In this document: positions 1-6,635 of the stretch, piece after piece
How positions within the stretch are numbered: the first letter of the stretch is position 1
How the letters are laid out: every line of letters starts with the position of its first letter
DNA from: a virus
Lineage: Duplodnaviria > Heunggongvirae > Uroviricota > Caudoviricetes
Length of the DNA stretch: 6,635 nt
Virus record (IMG/VR): IMGVR_UViG_2574180227_000018
Strand: one strand, 5' to 3'
Notes under the pieces: generated by a model
What the model was told of the DNA's origin: nothing
What the model saw: the letters and a program-made list of their open reading frames with translations, nothing else
Database searches by the model: none
Program-made: the position numbers and the translations under genes

Positions 1-1053
1 TTAAACTTCGTTTAACGCTTCCTGTATTCTTCGACCAATCCATTTCATGACCGGTACAGGCATTGAATTTCCAATGGCCTTATAACGATGAGCTGGAGAT
101 GAATTTTTCCATGGAATATCTGTATATCCATCGGGAAAACCTTGTAGCCTCTCGCATTCGGTTGGCGTCAACCTACGAACCCTTGAATATGGCGCTCTTT
201 CAACTATGAGCCCACCAGACATAGTCATGTCCTGGTTAGTTGTTCCGTTATAGCCAGCTATTACTGTGCCTGTTCGTTTTGGCAATGCTTCAAGGCAATA
301 TCGGTGCAATTTTCCTTCAATGCCTTGATCAAGAAGGGATTCGGATTTTTTCTTCTTTCCGTAATAGTTTTTATCGCCCTGCGACACAGGCGGGAACTCA
401 AATAATACCTTTCCGGGATCGAGCCTTTTTCCAGCACTTGCCACAACAAACACTCTTCTGCGAGCCTGGGCGACTCCGAAATATTGGGCATCAAGTACTC
501 GCCAGGCGACGATACGCGATGGTCCAGACACAACACCAGCGTTTGCCCATCTTTTCCTTGCTGGCTGTAATGCGCAACCTGCTCCGGCCAGCGCACCAAG
601 AAAATGACCGAATGCATTGTCATGGCTACTTAAAACTCCTGTGACGTTTTCCCATACGATTATTGAGGGGGATTTATTGAGCGATGCCCGAACGGTATCT
701 ATCTGATTCGCCAGTTCAACAAAAGACAGTGTTAACTGCCCCCGTGGATCTGAAAGGCCTTTTCGTTTGCCTGACATACTGAATGCCTGACACGGAGTTC
801 CACCTACAAGAATATCTGGTGCTTCAATAAGCCCATCCCTGATACGAGGCGCAAGCAAAGCCATATCACCAAGATTTGGTATATGGGGCCAGCGATATGA
901 AAGAAGTGTTGACGGGAAGTCCTCTATTTCACTGAACCATCTGGCTTTCCAGCCAAGATTGCTCCAGGCTACTGTCGCAGCTTCAATACCACTGCATACT
1001 GAACCATAGGTTAGTGACTTATCAGACTGAAAGTAATGTTTCTTGTTCCCCAC
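1..1053 (-). CDS. DNA (cytosine-5)-methyltransferase, phage-type, complete (GTG start at 1053, stop codon at 1-3)
   Basis: 350-aa ORF carrying C5-MTase motifs in canonical order: catalytic PCQ (GGTPCQAFS), ENV (VWENVTG), QxRxR (QARRRVFVV), and C-terminal RRLTPTECERLQGFPDGYT and AIGNSMPVPV. Gly-rich N-terminal motif I-like stretch (VCSGIEAA). SD-like AAGGAAA lies 7 nt upstream of the GTG. Short target-recognition region between motifs VIII and IX. Confidence 0.9.
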   Translation of the reverse strand: MGNKKHYFQSDKSLTYGSVCSGIEAATVAWSNLGWKARWFSEIEDFPSTLLSYRWPHIPNLGDMALLAPRIRDGLIEAPDILVGGTPCQAFSMSGKRKGLSDPRGQLTLSFVELANQIDTVRASLNKSPSIIVWENVTGVLSSHDNAFGHFLGALAGAGCALQPARKRWANAGVVSGPSRIVAWRVLDAQYFGVAQARRRVFVVASAGKRLDPGKVLFEFPPVSQGDKNYYGKKKKSESLLDQGIEGKLHRYCLEALPKRTGTVIAGYNGTTNQDMTMSGGLIVERAPYSRVRRLTPTECERLQGFPDGYTDIPWKNSSPAHRYKAIGNSMPVPVMKWIGRRIQEALNEV

Positions 1054-1207
1054 GGCAGGATTTCCTTGTGTATGTGGGGTGCTCTGTGGCGCTCTGAGAT
1101 GTGATTTGATTGAGGGTTTTGCAGCGCGGACATTTTACTTCCAGATAACTGAAACTGGCCCGTGCCAGTAGCTTATTGCAGTGTCGGCACCGTATGTTTC
1201 GATACAT
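1022..1207 (-). CDS. com: Com-like C4 zinc-finger protein (phage Mu Com family translational activator); overlaps the methyltransferase start by 32 nt
   Basis: Translation MYRNIRCRHCNKLLARASFSYLEVKCPRCKTLNQI...EHPTYTRKSC has two CxxC knuckles with Mu Com-like spacing and flanking residues (IRCxxCNKLL, CPRCK, EHPT), as I recall the Mu Com sequence. ATG at 1207 is preceded by AGGAGG with 10-nt spacing; the ORF track's longer form (to 1252) starts on a non-ATG codon with no SD. Its 3' end overlaps the downstream DNA-modification gene, as com does with mom. Confidence 0.7.
   Translation of the reverse strand: MYRNIRCRHCNKLLARASFSYLEVKCPRCKTLNQITSQSATEHPTYTRKSCRGEQETLLSV
1048..1079 (-). promoter_or_regulatory. 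mRNA hairpin sequestering the methyltransferase GTG start; SD lies in the loop
   Basis: Inverted repeat ccccac (1048-1053) and gtgggg (1074-1079). In the minus-strand mRNA the 6-bp GC-rich stem pairs CCCCAC with GUGGGG, which is the GTG start plus the next codon. The 20-nt loop contains the AAGGAAA SD. Confidence 0.35.
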
Positions 1208-1787: not shown

Positions 1788-1796
1788 CAAATTCCC

Positions 1797-1816
1797 CCGG
1801 CAGGGAAACCTGCCGG
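1797..1816. terminator. Hairpin between convergent stop codons (8-bp stem, GAAA loop)
   Basis: ccggcagg gaaa cctgccgg lies between the + gene stop (1785-1787) and the minus gene stop (1826-1828). Flanking U-tracts are weak on both strands. Confidence 0.4.
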
Positions 1817-1825
1817 TCGGTATTG

Positions 1826-2071
1826 TTACATCATAGTACCGTCAGTTCCGGGCTGAACCGGCTCTGGTTGCTCTACGGGTTGAGGAGCATTTTCCGTGCT
1901 GTTTTCAGCCGGAGAACGGCCAACCATTCGGGCCAGCACTTCATCAACATATGCGTCGATTTGTGCCTCAAAATCCTTGCGAACCTGCGCCTTCAGCACG
2001 CGGTTCACTTCTTCAGAATAAAGTGCCTGTTTGACAAGCTCTTCAGTAACCGTGCCTTTAATCTCTGGCAT
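1826..2071 (-). CDS. Hypothetical protein, 81 aa (helical N-terminal half, Pro/Glu/Gln-rich acidic tail)
   Basis: Strong SD AAGGAG 7 nt upstream of ATG 2071. Protein-like composition. Starts 35 bp downstream of the 60-aa gene, so likely co-transcribed with it. Confidence 0.6.
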   Translation of the reverse strand: MPEIKGTVTEELVKQALYSEEVNRVLKAQVRKDFEAQIDAYVDEVLARMVGRSPAENSTENAPQPVEQPEPVQPGTDGTMM

Positions 2072-2106: not shown

Positions 2107-2289
2107 TCAGAGCGGGGTCGGGTCGTTTGGGGATGATGGTGCCTGTGCTGTTTTACTGAGCTTTTCGGCTGCTGCGTCATCAATTTTGCGGCGAATATAA
2201 TTTCTGATGACCTTATAACCGCCGCTCACCAGATATAACGCACTGACCACAGCGCAGAAATAAAGCAGCATTGTATGAACGAATGTCAT
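2107..2289 (-). CDS. Hypothetical small membrane protein, 60 aa (one N-terminal transmembrane helix, charged C-terminal tail)
   Basis: SD TAAGG upstream of ATG 2289. Hydrophobic segment LLYFCAVVSALYLVSGG followed by KVIRNYIRRK. Confidence 0.5.
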   Translation of the reverse strand: MTFVHTMLLYFCAVVSALYLVSGGYKVIRNYIRRKIDDAAAEKLSKTAQAPSSPNDPTPL

Positions 2290-2403: not shown

Positions 2404-2440
2404 TCCCGCCAGCCATATCATGACCGGCGGGATTTTTTTT
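2404..2440 (+). terminator. Intrinsic terminator-like hairpin, + strand orientation (7-bp GC stem, T8 tract)
   Basis: tcccgcc, a 15-nt loop, ggcggga, then tttttttt (2433-2440). On the minus strand the hairpin sits just after the esterase stop but has no following U-tract. Confidence 0.4.
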
Positions 2441-4478
2441 ATTCTGTTACCGCTTTTTTCACTTCCACCACAATGCTGTCAATCAGCACCGGGTAAGTTG
2501 CATTTTTGGTGATATCCGTTACGCGGAGTTTGTCCACCGGGAAAGTTCCTACTGGTGACTGCGTCAGGGTAAACGCGGCACCATCCTGACCATCAATAAC
2601 CGGAATAACCTGAAGGCTGTTATTTCCTGCAAAACGGAAGGCCAGCGTATGCCATTCATTATCAAATACACCAAAGGTTCCCAGTTTCTGGTTATTTGTT
2701 GCCACTTTTGCATTGTGGTGCATCACATTCAGGTCTTTTGCGTCTGTCTGGATGTAGAACGATGCCAGCAGATTATTCCCTGCATCCCCTGTCAGGGTGA
2801 CACCCTGCGGCAGAGAGGAAACCGGCCAGTAAAGCGCCATGACATACTGGTTTGCCACCAGGTCGCCAGGTACTTTAAAACGACAACTGATTAAACCACC
2901 ATTTTTCAGCAGTTCAGCACCAGTACCGGCATCATGATCCAGATACCAGGATGATTTACCTGTTTCCTTGGTCAGTTTCATTGCCTTACCACCTGTGCCT
3001 CCTGCATCACTGATAATTTCAGCTTTACCGCCAGCCGGCTCCCAGCCCTGGGCTTTCAGATTTCCTTCTGACTCACTGACACGGTAAGACAGCAGTGTTG
3101 TGGTTACTGCTTCAGTTTCTGAAGGTGACGGCACTGGTGCTTCAGTTTCAGAAGATGGAACATCGGCTTTTACTGTGGTTCGCCCTGCATGAGTCAGAAC
3201 AGCCGTGGCCAGACGGTCGGAAATAATCCCACGACGTGCCCATGAACTGAAATGGCTGGCCCGGCCCGCAGATGTCCAGGTGGCGGCACTGTTACGCCAC
3301 GTTGAGCCGTAATAACCAATGGATTCAATATCCGGGTCTTCTGTCGGATTGTTGGTGGGTACATTCGCGCCATTTTCATCTGTCATTAATGGGACGAAAT
3401 GAATGTTTTTATCTGTTTTATTTTTGTAGCCGTCATAGATTGCCTGGTATGCCTGTTCGTTTTTCTGTTTCCAGAAATACGTGGTATCGCCACAAATCCA
3501 CGGAACGCCAGCAGCACTGCCACCGGTACACTGTTCCGCCTGTTCAGCCAAGTCTGCGCGGAATTTTTCCACCATCGCCAGAAACAGCGCGGAATGCTCC
3601 GTCGGCTTCGCATCAATATCAAACTCGCCCTGCATCCACACCACAGCAAGCAGGCGGTTTTTCGGGTTCTTCGCCAGTGCCGCTTTTGTCCGGCTGATTA
3701 AGTCCTTATACAGCGGCTTATCCACACCCCAGCGGGCTGAGTCCTCTGAAGCACCCGTGCTGTCACTGTACGTGCCGTCAGCACCCGCCGTGAATGCAGA
3801 ACCACCACGGCAGCAGGGAACCAGCAGAATCCCCGCATCTGCCGGAATAAACGGCAGCAGTTTTTTGGCAATGTGAAGCCCCTGACCCACGGTGCCATAT
3901 TGCCCTTTAGCCACATCCGCTTTCGGGTGATTTTTTCCACTCATATCCTGCACATCATGCAGACAGTGGTCGGCCAGAATGATGTCGTTATACTGACAGG
4001 CTTTACCTCCCGGCGTGACTGTACTGCGACGGGCTAACTGCATAATACGCGGTTCGGGGTGGTCATATGTCTCCGGCAGCGGCAGACCTTCACCGTAGGC
4101 CATCCCGTTTGACTGACCAGCAAGAACCACCACGTAATACCAGGAAGGGGAGCTGGAAGCAGTTTCATTTCCTGACGGACGGGTATGTGTTTCAGCATTA
4201 TCCCAGTCTGACGGTTCAGCAGTACCGGCAACATCAGCACTTAACGGAATGACAGCACCAATACCCGCACCGGTAATTTCCACGCTCGGATCACCGGATA
4301 CTGGCCTTACCCACAGGCAATCCCGTGTATTAAAACTGATGAGACAGTCAGCAAATGTCATTCCTCCTTTTGTTTCGGCCGGAGGAAAGGGAGCCTCAAG
4401 AAATGCCGCTGTACCACCGGAAACTTTAACAGTAAAGTTTCCGGGCATTGATGATAGTTGAACCCATTTGGACGTCAT
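2439..4478 (-). CDS. SGNH/SASA-family carbohydrate esterase (sialate O-acetylesterase-like, prophage NanS-p-like architecture), 679 aa, three domains
   Basis: GQSN catalytic-serine motif in VVVLAGQSNGMAYGEG and a downstream WMQGEFD block, typical of sialate O-acetylesterase/SASA domains. About 110 aa of N-terminal domain, a Ser/Pro/Glu/Thr linker with tandem SETEA repeats, and about 250 aa of C-terminal Gly/Thr-rich, probably beta-rich domain. No signal peptide. ATG at 4478. Confidence 0.8.
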   Translation of the reverse strand: MTSKWVQLSSMPGNFTVKVSGGTAAFLEAPFPPAETKGGMTFADCLISFNTRDCLWVRPVSGDPSVEITGAGIGAVIPLSADVAGTAEPSDWDNAETHTRPSGNETASSSPSWYYVVVLAGQSNGMAYGEGLPLPETYDHPEPRIMQLARRSTVTPGGKACQYNDIILADHCLHDVQDMSGKNHPKADVAKGQYGTVGQGLHIAKKLLPFIPADAGILLVPCCRGGSAFTAGADGTYSDSTGASEDSARWGVDKPLYKDLISRTKAALAKNPKNRLLAVVWMQGEFDIDAKPTEHSALFLAMVEKFRADLAEQAEQCTGGSAAGVPWICGDTTYFWKQKNEQAYQAIYDGYKNKTDKNIHFVPLMTDENGANVPTNNPTEDPDIESIGYYGSTWRNSAATWTSAGRASHFSSWARRGIISDRLATAVLTHAGRTTVKADVPSSETEAPVPSPSETEAVTTTLLSYRVSESEGNLKAQGWEPAGGKAEIISDAGGTGGKAMKLTKETGKSSWYLDHDAGTGAELLKNGGLISCRFKVPGDLVANQYVMALYWPVSSLPQGVTLTGDAGNNLLASFYIQTDAKDLNVMHHNAKVATNNQKLGTFGVFDNEWHTLAFRFAGNNSLQVIPVIDGQDGAAFTLTQSPVGTFPVDKLRVTDITKNATYPVLIDSIVVEVKKAVTE

Positions 4479-4577
4479 AATAATCAGCCTGTTCCTGAAT
4501 AAACAGAATTATCATATCCACAGACCGATAAACGCCATTTTGCGTTAATTCAGTAAAGGCCCAACAAAGAGAGCGTC

Positions 4578-5138
4578 TTATTTTTCCGAAACGCTCGCAG
4601 GATAATAACGATAAAGGGTTGAAAGGCCGATATCAAAAATAAGTGCCACCTGTCTTCGGCTGACACCCCCGGCCAGTAAACGCCCGACCTGCTCGTATTG
4701 TTCCTGCGTGAGACGACGGGGTCTGCCGCCGGTTCGTCCCCTTTCACGGGCAGCAGCAAGACCAGCCCGTGTCCGTTCGACAATCAATTCACGCTCCATT
4801 TCTGCCAGCGCACCCATTATGTGAAAAAAGAAGCGCCCCATGGGGGTTGACGTATCAATGTTGTCAGTAAGACTACGAAAATTTATCCCCTGTTGCTGTA
4901 ATTCATCTGTCAGCGCAACAAGGTGGCGCATACTGCGCCCCAGCCTGTCCAGTTTCCAGACCATCAGTGTGTCGCCGGGTTTTAGTTTCTTCAGTGCCCG
5001 CTTCAGTCCCGGCCGCTGCGTCGTTTTACCACTCATTTTGTCTTCAAAAATCTGCTCACATCCTGCACATTCCAGCGCATTTCTTTGTAAACCTGTGTTC
5101 TGGTCATTTGTTGATACGCGTATATAGCCAATCAGCAT
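4578..5138 (-). CDS. pin: Serine recombinase, DNA invertase of the Pin/Gin/Hin/Cin family, 186 aa
   Basis: N-terminus MLIGYIRVSTNDQNTGLQ carries the catalytic Ser motif. Resolvase-type catalytic domain (VWKLDRLGRS, MGALAEMERELI) and C-terminal HTH (GGVSRRQVALIFDIGLSTLYRY). SD AAGGAAGG 7 nt upstream of the ATG. Immediately adjacent to an inverted-repeat-bounded segment. Confidence 0.95.
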   Translation of the reverse strand: MLIGYIRVSTNDQNTGLQRNALECAGCEQIFEDKMSGKTTQRPGLKRALKKLKPGDTLMVWKLDRLGRSMRHLVALTDELQQQGINFRSLTDNIDTSTPMGRFFFHIMGALAEMERELIVERTRAGLAAARERGRTGGRPRRLTQEQYEQVGRLLAGGVSRRQVALIFDIGLSTLYRYYPASVSEK

Positions 5139-5192: not shown

Positions 5193-5218
5193 ATCCCTGA
5201 AACCTCGGTTTACGGGAA
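5193..5218. other. Left inversion crossover site (gix/pix-like: two 12-bp half-sites around central TC at 5205-5206)
   Basis: atccctgaaacc tc ggtttacgggaa is an imperfect palindrome resembling the gix/hix core (AAACC-TC-GGTTT). An identical 26-bp copy lies inverted at the right edge. Confidence 0.7.
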
Positions 5219-5226
5219 ACGGTAAA
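5201..5226. repeat. Inverted repeat, left arm (26 bp, perfect match to reverse complement of 6610-6635)
   Basis: aacctcggtttacgggaaacggtaaa compared by eye with the reverse complement of the last 26 bases of the window. Confidence 0.85.
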
Positions 5227-5587
5227 CAGGGCGGCGAATGCCCTGCCATCGAACGGAACGGCCGTTGCCGCGAACAGGCTGGCAAATGCCCACACAATTA
5301 ATGGTGTTCCCTTTGACGGAACGCAGGATATCAACATTACCTCCGGTATGACCGAAGCTGCTGCTGATAACAAATACGTTCGCAACGTTCAGCTTGGTGC
5401 CCAGAGTTACCATTCACCCGGAGGTAATGAAATGTCCTGGAGTTATGGCGCGCCTTCCGGTTGTATGCTTTCAGGTATTAACGTGCAGGAGACCGGGAGA
5501 AATTCAGCCGATAATATCGGAGGCGTTTATTACCGTCCGGTGCAGATATATATCGGTAATGCCTGGCGCACAGTTTCATCCGTCTGA
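5201..5587 (+). CDS. Silent alternative tail-fiber C-terminal cassette (Sv'-like); no start of its own in this orientation
   Basis: Open frame begins right after a TGA at 5198-5200 and runs through the recombination site to the stop at 5585-5587. The encoded NLGLRETVNRAANALPSNGTAVAANRLA...INGVPFDGTQDINITSGM... parallels the minus-strand fiber C-terminus (NLGLRETVNKAADALPSGGTAVAANRLA...INGVPFDGTRDINITSGM...), and the ends are similar (VYYRPVQIYIGNAW versus VYYRQIQYCINGNW). Confidence 0.7.
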   Translation, partial: NLGLRETVNRAANALPSNGTAVAANRLANAHTINGVPFDGTQDINITSGMTEAAADNKYVRNVQLGAQSYHSPGGNEMSWSYGAPSGCMLSGINVQETGRNSADNIGGVYYRPVQIYIGNAWRTVSSV

Positions 5588-6263: not shown

Positions 6264-6635
6264 TTAAATACTTGCAGCGGATACCCAATTCCCATTAATA
6301 CAATATTGTATCTGTCTGTAATAAACACGGTCATCACCACCACGCATTTCCCAGTCTCCGTCAGTCTTAAAACCGGTAATCACATTTCCTGATGACAGGG
6401 AGTAATTATATTCCAGTACGCCGCTTAATGCCTGCGCTCCCAGTCTTACCCCTGTAACATAACGCTGATTGGCCGTTGATTCCGGCATTCCTGACGTAAT
6501 GTTTATATCCCGCGTCCCGTCGAAAGGAACACCATTAATATTTCTTGGGGTGGCGAGTCTGTTTGCTGCCACGGCGGTTCCCCCCGATGGCAGGGCATCA
6601 GCGGCCTTATTTACCGTTTCCCGTAAACCGAGGTT
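6264..6635 (-). CDS. Tail fiber protein, C-terminal variable part (Sv-like), 5'-truncated by the window edge; currently expressed orientation
   Basis: The reading frame is open from the last base of the window through the inverted repeat to the stop at 6264-6266. The ORF-track GTG at 6572 is internal. Homologous to the + strand cassette. Confidence 0.8.
   Translation of the reverse strand, partial: NLGLRETVNKAADALPSGGTAVAANRLATPRNINGVPFDGTRDINITSGMPESTANQRYVTGVRLGAQALSGVLEYNYSLSSGNVITGFKTDGDWEMRGGDDRVYYRQIQYCINGNWVSAASI
6610..6635. repeat. Inverted repeat, right arm (26 bp), part of the right inversion site, which continues past the window edge
   Basis: Reverse complement equals 5201-5226. 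The predicted crossover dinucleotide is at 6630-6631, so the outer half-site lies beyond the window. Confidence 0.85.

Follow-up and report, generated by a model that had tools for sequence, protein, structure and literature searches.

What a sialate O-acetylesterase of the kind known from Shiga toxin (Stx) phages does beside the tail-fibre switch of a Mu-like phage is the question raised by a 6,635-nucleotide stretch of DNA from the IMG/VR virus record IMGVR_UViG_2574180227_000018 (Caudoviricetes), called the window in the following. Its longest open reading frame (ORF), 679 amino acids (aa) from an ATG start, lies on the minus strand at 2439..4478, and the window covers the right end of a Mu-like prophage that is complete and ~39 kb long. 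We consider it probable that the gene encodes a NanS-p-type 9-O-acetylesterase, which would be transcribed from a late-type promoter of its own, be released at lysis and aid sibling lysogens. The enzyme itself is ordinary and already annotated; new are the replacement of one of its domains and its context in a putative late unit of a Mu-like prophage. No paper on a Mu-like nanS-p or on the N-terminal module of this esterase was found, although an earlier mention is possible in subscription literature outside the search.

The exact protein sequence is present in public databases under the names sialate O-acetylesterase, YjhS or DUF6645 protein, the RefSeq label usually being just 'DUF6645 domain-containing protein', and its cluster at 90% identity has 1046 members. 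The protein consists of three modules with two low-complexity linkers in between, the second linker being the segment that varies most between alleles:

2439..4478, minus strand: esterase coding sequence, 679 aa; stop codon at 2439-2441
4245..4478, minus strand: N-terminal module, aa 1-78; predicted small all-beta cupin-like barrel, not DUF1737
4143..4244, minus strand: linker 1, aa 79-112; predicted to be disordered (predicted local distance difference test, pLDDT, <50); ends in ASSSP (aa 107-111)
3189..4142, minus strand: SGNH type II/SASA catalytic domain, aa 113-430; match to 3PT5; GQSN and RASH motifs
3105..3188, minus strand: linker 2, aa 431-458; rich in Pro, Ser, Thr and Glu
2442..3104, minus strand: C-terminal lectin-like jelly-roll domain (DUF6645), aa 459-679; match to 6YP6

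Profile searches with Pfam assigned SASA (PF03629) to aa 116-313 (E 5.9e-12; 46.1 bits against a gathering cut-off of 24.8) and DUF6645 (PF20350) to aa 524-642 (E 2.1e-68), and PHROG 143 spans aa 62-677 (E = 0); in NCBIfam neither the esterase nor the small ORFs have a model. As judged from the sequence, these domain matches are far beyond chance. The catalytic domain (aa 104-428) aligns with E. coli NanS/YjhS (PDB 3PT5) over 320 residues with 58% identity (E 1.6e-118), placing Ser123 and Gln122 of the GQSN motif (aa 121-124) on NanS Ser19 and Gln18 and His409 of the RASH motif (aa 406-409) on NanS His301 (codons of Ser123 and His409 at 4110-4112 and 3252-3254). For NanS it was shown that Ser19 and His301 are catalytic, that Gln18 contributes to the oxyanion hole and that a catalytic Asp is absent (PMC9063846). 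The features by which members of the SASA family are recognised are present, i.e., the block I nucleophile (G-x-S-x), the block V histidine (R-[AS]-S-H) and a profile score over the threshold. Moreover, aa 459-674 match the C-terminal domain of NanS-p from phage phi24B (PDB 6YP6) with 78.7% identity (E 4.3e-111), and all four aromatic residues proposed to bind sugar in phi24B (Y510, Y515, Y540 and F611) are kept as Y545, Y550, Y575 and F646. The phi24B domain is a lectin-like jelly roll for which carbohydrate binding was proposed (PMC10462455), and by analogy it presumably holds the enzyme of the window on sialoglycans. Homologous NanS-p alleles of EDL933 and O104:H4 are experimentally active esterases of Neu5,9Ac2 (N-acetyl-9-O-acetylneuraminic acid) and de-O-acetylate mucin glycans (PMC8065619), and because of this the assignment as a NanS-p-type sialate 9-O-acetylesterase can be regarded as strong, as a prediction for this allele. 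This agrees with the preliminary description, which had proposed an SGNH/SASA esterase of the sialate O-acetylesterase type from its GQSN motif and a carbohydrate-binding module at the C-terminus. Of the NanS-p-like three-domain build proposed there as well, the catalytic and C-terminal domains stand, whereas the N-terminal module is an unrelated all-beta domain without any Pfam match.

The same residues bear on the substrate. A phage esterase might also modify the receptor, acting on O-acetylated O-antigen, capsule or polysialic acid for adsorption or for the prevention of superinfection, like the esterase tailspikes of phage G7C and of Vi phage. The gene adjoins the tail-fibre host-range switch, its SASA region has a weak match to phrog_25867, annotated 'tail protein' (E 4.1e-5), and the possibility was raised for NanS-p in the review literature (PMC8065619). 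However, enzymes for which Neu5,9Ac2 specificity was demonstrated share 58-81% identity with the catalytic domain, and phi24B NanS-p has the same proposed sugar-binding residues in its C-terminal domain. Phages of podo-, sipho- and myovirus type, whose tails and receptors differ greatly, encode catalytic and C-terminal domains that are almost identical, which speaks against receptor recognition as their role; furthermore, no tail-fibre or tailspike attachment domain was found by Pfam. We therefore regard a receptor-modifying role as improbable, and of the two substrates suggested in the preliminary description, sialic acids or O-acetylated surface glycans such as lipopolysaccharide, de-O-acetylation of lipopolysaccharide is the less likely.

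Besides gin and an invertible tail-fibre segment, the prophage around the esterase gene has genes for MuA/MuB and Gam, for a Mor/C-family activator, WP_086218902.1, for lysis, for portal and protease, for the gpT major head protein, WP_001142982.1, and for a contractile tail with baseplate. Neighbouring genes, likewise on the minus strand, are a Gin-type invertase (4578..5138; Resolvase and HTH_7 domains, DNA 71% identical to Mu gin), the DUF1378 and DUF826 genes, com (1022..1207) and a C5 cytosine methyltransferase (1..1053):

2107..2289, minus strand: DUF1378 gene, 60 aa; PF07125, E 1.2e-38; one predicted hydrophobic helix, N-terminal
1826..2071, minus strand: DUF826 gene, 81 aa; PF05696, E 3.2e-15

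The best matches of the window are chromosomes from E. coli that produce Shiga toxin (STEC) with 98-99% identity and, in addition, two GenBank Stx-phage records annotated 'an inserted Mu-like phage'. At four different sites in chromosomes the exact esterase was found together with prophage ends that are identical, as expected of a transposing phage. Altogether 39 loci were compared (34 from IMG/VR, 4 from genomes and 1 from Salmonella), all with the N-terminal module, and the order (gin)-esterase-DUF1378-DUF826-com was found in 39 of 39, with a tail-fibre assembly gene before gin; where gin is missing, the locus still has a leftover of the 3' end of gin. Among complete E. coli genomes, the gin allele (at least 95% identity) occurs in 206 records and the N-terminus of the esterase in 207, i.e., they co-occur at approximately 1:1, and the N-terminus is present in 205 of 5,426 complete E. 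coli genomes (about 4%), many of them O157:H7 or O111. In this lineage of transposable Mu-like prophages of STEC, the trio of esterase, DUF1378 and DUF826 belongs to the fixed gene content. A recent one-off insertion of the cassette was considered and rejected because of this fixation and because diverged relatives from Shigella and Salmonella have the cassette as well. The preliminary description had correctly placed the gene between invertase and com and away from the lysis genes, which are ~24 kb distant, and had called this position unusual; it is so compared to lambdoid phages, in which nanS-p lies just upstream of S-R-Rz in Stx phages, but within the Mu-like lineage it is fixed and conserved.

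The right end resembles the gin-com-mom region of Mu in having Gin, recognisable G-segment inverted repeats, com and a DNA-modification gene at the extreme end. In contrast to prototype Mu, in which gin and com are separated by a gap of 95 bp without an esterase, it carries a 3.3-kb insertion between the two genes. The trio itself is known from lambdoid phages, including 1720a-02, which have nanS-p, DUF1378 and DUF826 upstream of S/R; genes for DUF1378 and DUF826 between nanS-p and S were noted before (PMC10462455). The DUF1378 protein is 53-56% identical to that encoded after nanS-p in Stx phages and the DUF826 protein 45% identical to its Stx-phage counterpart.

Copies of the Mu-like phage were also observed inside other prophages, namely in the Stx1a and Stx2c prophages of LC727895.1 and LC727881.1 (L002) and in a lambdoid tape-measure gene (L010 12152-13971). 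Such nested insertions bring two nanS-p-type genes of different architectures into one composite element. In Salmonella enterica GCA_037428405.1 (L005 9426-9910) two ORFs of 58 and 87 aa without family matches lie between invertase and esterase, and this esterase ends at the contig edge, its C-terminal part being outside the available sequence.

The part of the protein that sets it apart is the N-terminal module. Usually NanS-p begins with DUF1737, a domain of ~55 aa (PMC10462455). A Pfam scan of aa 1-115 of the window's esterase gave zero matches even at E<=10, DUF1737 (PF08410) included, and homology to Stx-phage NanS-p begins only at about residue 100 at both the DNA and the protein level. 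In an AlphaFold model calculated from a six-sequence alignment, residues 1-78 form an all-beta domain of six strands (pLDDT 74-90), after which comes a disordered linker; a single-sequence model of the whole esterase was discarded (pLDDT 34). Foldseek against the PDB agreed weakly with a cupin-like all-beta reading, and in BFVD the structural relatives are stand-alone uncharacterised phage proteins of 77-99 aa (template modelling score up to 0.65, E about 0.01), with A0A2I7QQY7, M4QT04 and A0A1W5PTV6 as the top matches. As the module contains no His at all, it is unlikely to have the metal-binding active site of a cupin. When 1.84 billion representative proteins were searched with HMMER without an index, five matches resulted, of which the informative ones are an E. 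coli/Shigella variant with 60% and a Salmonella variant with 29% identity, each leading into a linker and the 'AGQSN' start of a SASA domain. A 1445-aa repeat protein (P0005) that matched the query in 9 stretches was judged to be a compositional artefact rich in Gly, Ala, Val and Thr; its Pfam matches are unrelated and, per stretch, below significance. The Salmonella variant matches phrog_4772 (79 positions, no assigned function; E 6.8e-6). Word-indexed protein searches returned E. coli, Shigella and Salmonella fragments only, a scan of genome contigs gave no match to the module, tblastn of both variants against 50,697 phage records revealed no stand-alone relatives, and the module itself is present in only 2 of these 50,697 records, both Mu-like inserts. 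As modelled, it is a rare cupin-like all-beta domain, and all proteins found to carry it are SASA esterases from Mu-like prophages. Purifying selection acts on it to a degree comparable to that on the catalytic domain (nonsynonymous/synonymous polymorphism, pN/pS, of 0.24/0.77 for the N-terminal module and of 0.19/0.71 for SASA), and all three protein parts are constrained in this way.

A comparison of the window allele by domains shows that the three parts differ in their relationships:

Mu-like loci L018 and L021 versus window allele: N-terminal module 98-99%, SASA 67-68%, C-terminal domain 40-47% identical
lambdoid Stx-phage NanS-p versus window allele: N-terminal module without homology, SASA 81%, C-terminal domain 78-82% identical

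These domain-wise identities show recombination inside the esterase gene. On this sequence comparison the gene is a mosaic, in which the N-terminus travels with the Mu-like backbone and the enzymatic part is exchanged with the lambdoid gene pool. A mosaic cassette with lambdoid-like SASA and C-terminal parts might also be read as an inert passenger, i.e., a decaying remnant of recombination with a lambdoid prophage that is functionless in the Mu-like phage, and some copies are in fact truncated or frameshifted (L013 with 523 aa, the fragments P0004 and P0006, the split hits in L025 and L040). We consider this the most improbable of the explanations. The great majority of loci have a full-length ORF, in line with the size of the cluster, the selection acts on all three parts, the catalytic residues are intact, and the arrangement is kept across Mu-like prophages of E. 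coli, Shigella and Salmonella despite N-terminal modules of 29-60% identity.

The linkage of the N-terminus to the backbone fits a phage-type-specific adaptor, and a neutral explanation fits as well: crossovers with lambdoid phages are only possible within the homologous region from SASA to DUF826, and for this reason the non-homologous 5' end would always stay with gin. The adaptor view is suggested by phi24B, for which it was reported that DUF1737 (one helix and three strands) forms a hexamer on the central capsid hexons, thereby decorating the capsid, and that the enzyme is cleaved at SSP-type linker motifs, the cut in gp84 adjoining an SISSP motif in the equivalent linker (bioRxiv 10.64898/2026.04.10.717836). 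The esterase might accordingly be borne by the virion, with the N-terminal module docking it to the Mu-type capsid or tail, and the particles would carry the esterase/lectin, or shed it after linker cleavage, aiding persistence or movement in mucus. The module occupies the position of DUF1737 and is followed by a disordered linker that contains SSSP (aa 108-111), a likeness to the phi24B cleavage motif which we take as a lead only. It is restricted to Mu-like contexts and selectively constrained, it stays nearly identical while the SASA and C-terminal domains are swapped, a diverged copy starts the esterase of a Salmonella Mu-like prophage, and its structural relatives are stand-alone phage proteins of a size range as small as given above, like most DUF1737 proteins; a structural role would also fit a late-type promoter. 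The evidence for docking is indirect, namely position, linker, lineage restriction and selection. On the other side, the linkage to the backbone can be explained neutrally, the gene is located neither in the head module nor in the tail module, the prophage has no paralogue of the N-terminal domain, and cupin-like domains also act as dimerisation or sugar-binding modules. We therefore think a virion-borne enzyme rather unlikely, although it could coexist with release of a NanS-p-type enzyme at lysis. Equally tentative, and in our view doubtful, is the more general idea that the N-terminal modules of NanS-p proteins are interchangeable, particle-matched virion-docking adaptors, with DUF1737 for phi24B-like capsids and the cupin-like module for Mu-type particles of STEC and Salmonella phages, and with release via an SSSP-type linker. 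If true, Mu-like phages of STEC and Salmonella would bear a sialate esterase/lectin on their particles that is freed by linker cleavage.

The preferred reading of a lysis-released enzyme includes late expression. Upstream of the esterase a late-promoter-like box is present, and hairpins follow the esterase and the last gene of the trio:

4536..4553, minus strand: late-promoter-like upstream box CTGAATTAACGCAAAATG; 11/15 positions match the box from the lys and head-protease sites
4511..4516, minus strand: -10-like hexamer TATGAT, 19 nt past the box and ~32 nt upstream of the ATG
2404..2432, minus strand: 13-bp GC-rich hairpin directly after the esterase stop, A8 before it; fold z-score -4.55
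1793..1816, minus strand: terminator-like hairpin ending the three-gene unit after DUF826; z -3.5, followed by AAUUUGUU

The three promoter-like sites of the prophage compare as follows:

lys operon: box CTGATATTCCGCAAAGCC, spacer 20 nt, TACGCT
head protease operon: box CTGAAATCCCGCAAAACC, spacer 20 nt, TATGCT
esterase operon: box CTGAATTAACGCAAAATG, spacer 19 nt, TATGAT

No -35 element matching the -10-like hexamer of the esterase was found, and a generic sigma-70 scan did not perform better than on shuffled sequences and gave no convincing esterase promoter. Activator-dependent late promoters of the Mu type are expected to be without a -35 element; Margolin, Rao and Howe reportedly described in 1989 four C-dependent late promoters of Mu, all of which lack it. 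Because of these Mu promoters the cassette can be interpreted, by analogy, as a putative late transcription unit. A two-block pattern with flexible spacing, built from the lys and protease sites only, turned up a single additional site when both strands of the 40-kb prophage were scanned, namely that of the esterase. With this pattern 3 hits were observed versus a shuffle average of 0.57 per prophage (80 kb), and the expectation for a chance hit in the 100-nt stretch of the esterase is about 7e-4. A degenerate 15-mer likewise hit only the lys, protease and esterase sites in 40 kb, even with one mismatch, which is circular as the pattern was derived from the same sites. Moreover, the esterase box is kept in 38 of 38 esterase loci in two sequence versions, despite diverged intergenic DNA. 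The boxes are candidate sites for the Mor/C-family late activator of the prophage.

The common motif, a CTGAnnTnnCGCAAAA box followed after 19-20 nt by TAnnnT, was observed upstream of lys, protease and esterase (L045 11532-11549 and 19460-19477 in the prophage of NZ_CP045712.1; window 4536-4553). Between esterase and DUF1378 the spacer contains two hairpins (2359-2374 and 2404-2432), the T-runs of which belong to the plus (antisense) strand; in the sense direction A8 stands before the first hairpin, which lacks a U-tail. Stx phages 1717 and 1720a-02 have an A-run and a GC hairpin at the same position after nanS-p, their stems differing in sequence.

The sequence analysis shows the domain homologies, the residues for catalysis and binding, the order and lineage distribution of the genes, the mosaicism and the purifying selection. 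We infer the following course of events, which concerns the substrate, the timing of expression, the release route and the benefit to the lysogen. The esterase, DUF1378 and DUF826 would form one unit with its own late-type promoter of the kind of the lysis and head genes and with its own terminator, and in late lytic growth the esterase would be produced in the cytoplasm. A signal-peptide-like N-terminus was not seen, as had been stated in the preliminary description (best 10-aa hydropathy window of 0.86 in the first ~40 aa and no basic n-region, by a heuristic and not a dedicated predictor), and because of this the enzyme would exit the cell at lysis, possibly partly on virions. Outside, the C-terminal lectin-like domain would bind sialoglycans and the Ser123/His409 dyad, with Gln122 in the oxyanion hole, would strip 9-O-acetyl groups from free or mucin-bound sialic acids, so that the deacetylated sugar might be used by sialidases and the Nan pathway of surviving sibling lysogens. 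This benefit follows a proposal made for Stx-phage NanS-p (PMC8065619).

Several points weigh against this reading. The promoter box was first spotted by eye. When a rigid 56-nt template was made from the lys and protease sites, the esterase site did not rise above the background, and no similar box was found upstream of com or the tail genes, leaving the set of late promoters incomplete. DUF1378 and DUF826 might be expressed at an attenuated level owing to the hairpin that follows the stop codon of the esterase. No obvious terminator was found between gin and the esterase, and read-through from gin could give low constitutive expression of the esterase in lysogens. The esterase activity of this allele is deduced from homology, and the benefit to the lysogen is extrapolated from the alleles of Stx phages.

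Compared to NanS-p of Stx and other lambdoid phages (933W P42/z1466; phi24B vb_24B_21 = gp84), the esterase of the window has the same catalytic and aromatic residues, is prophage-borne without a signal peptide, is followed by DUF1378 and DUF826 and would, like NanS-p, lie downstream of a late-type promoter. It differs in its six-stranded beta module of ~78 aa in place of DUF1737, in a longer linker, in its host, which is a transposable Mu-like myovirus and not a lambdoid phage, and in its location between gin and com and not between stx/Q and S; its expression would depend on a Mu-type late activator, whereas Stx phages use Q antitermination. With chromosomal NanS (YjhS, 3PT5) it shares the SGNH type II fold family, the Ser/His dyad without catalytic Asp and the oxyanion Gln. 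NanS has an export signal and acts in the periplasm; it is a single-domain protein of the nan regulon, whereas the phage-encoded protein has additional N- and C-terminal domains and no signal peptide. The cassette is also similar to phage morons, i.e., autonomous cargo units of promoter, gene and terminator that lie in the late regions of temperate phages, in being a compact unit with promoter-like and terminator-like elements between the backbone genes gin and com that is absent in Mu. Classical morons, however, are typically expressed from the prophage independently of the phage programme, and since the putative promoter of the esterase resembles the late promoters of the phage itself, expression in the lysogen is doubtful.

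With NanS-p esterases, of which strains have several copies, enterohaemorrhagic E. coli can use the O-acetylated sialic acids of mucin. Counts that rely on lambdoid prophages or on the DUF1737 architecture would miss the allele of the window. Mu-like prophages of the Sp18 type were reported as intact yet not inducible by mitomycin (PMC2669165), and because of this the copy in a Mu-type prophage, a location reported not to be SOS/mitomycin-inducible, would respond to other triggers, and be expressed under other conditions, than the stx-linked Q-dependent copies. Moreover, since a conserved module that is unrelated to DUF1737 has cleanly taken its place, there is a testable handle on a possible virion-displayed role in mucus binding or modification, with the N-terminal module as particle-specific adaptor.

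Further observations concern the remainder of the window and of the prophage. Inverted repeats at 5200-5246 and 6604-6635, which are 88-94% identical to the boundaries of the Mu G segment, delimit the segment 5200-6635 and bracket the tail-fibre C-terminus and assembly genes. The tail-fibre assembly gene lies on opposite strands in otherwise identical prophages (L006 versus L007-L009; window versus L001), i.e., the tail-fibre switch was caught in both of its states in public assemblies. Between the head-morphogenesis and virion-morphogenesis genes of the prophage, RefSeq annotates an antisense 'tRNA-OTHER' (L045 18740-18819). Between DUF826 and com, two conserved antisense ORFs are present on the plus strand (1322-1492 and 1593-1787), which RefSeq treats as one frameshifted hypothetical gene; neither has a match in NCBIfam, and for 1593-1787 there is also none in Pfam and PHROGs.

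The com zinc-ribbon gene (1022-1207) overlaps the C5 cytosine DNA methyltransferase gene (1-1053; PF00145, TIGR00675), which takes the position of Mu mom; in contrast to Mu, the Com-controlled gene of the window thus encodes a C5 cytosine methyltransferase. Close relatives with com genes 95-98% identical carry a Mom-family gene instead (L010; PF25680, E 4e-77); the Com-controlled modification gene was therefore swapped. Finally, just upstream of the annotated com start (1207), the palindrome AATCGATCGACAAAAACGATCGATT at 1251-1275 has a perfect 9-bp stem and includes the Dam site GATC twice, reminiscent of how Dam and OxyR control the mom promoter of Mu.

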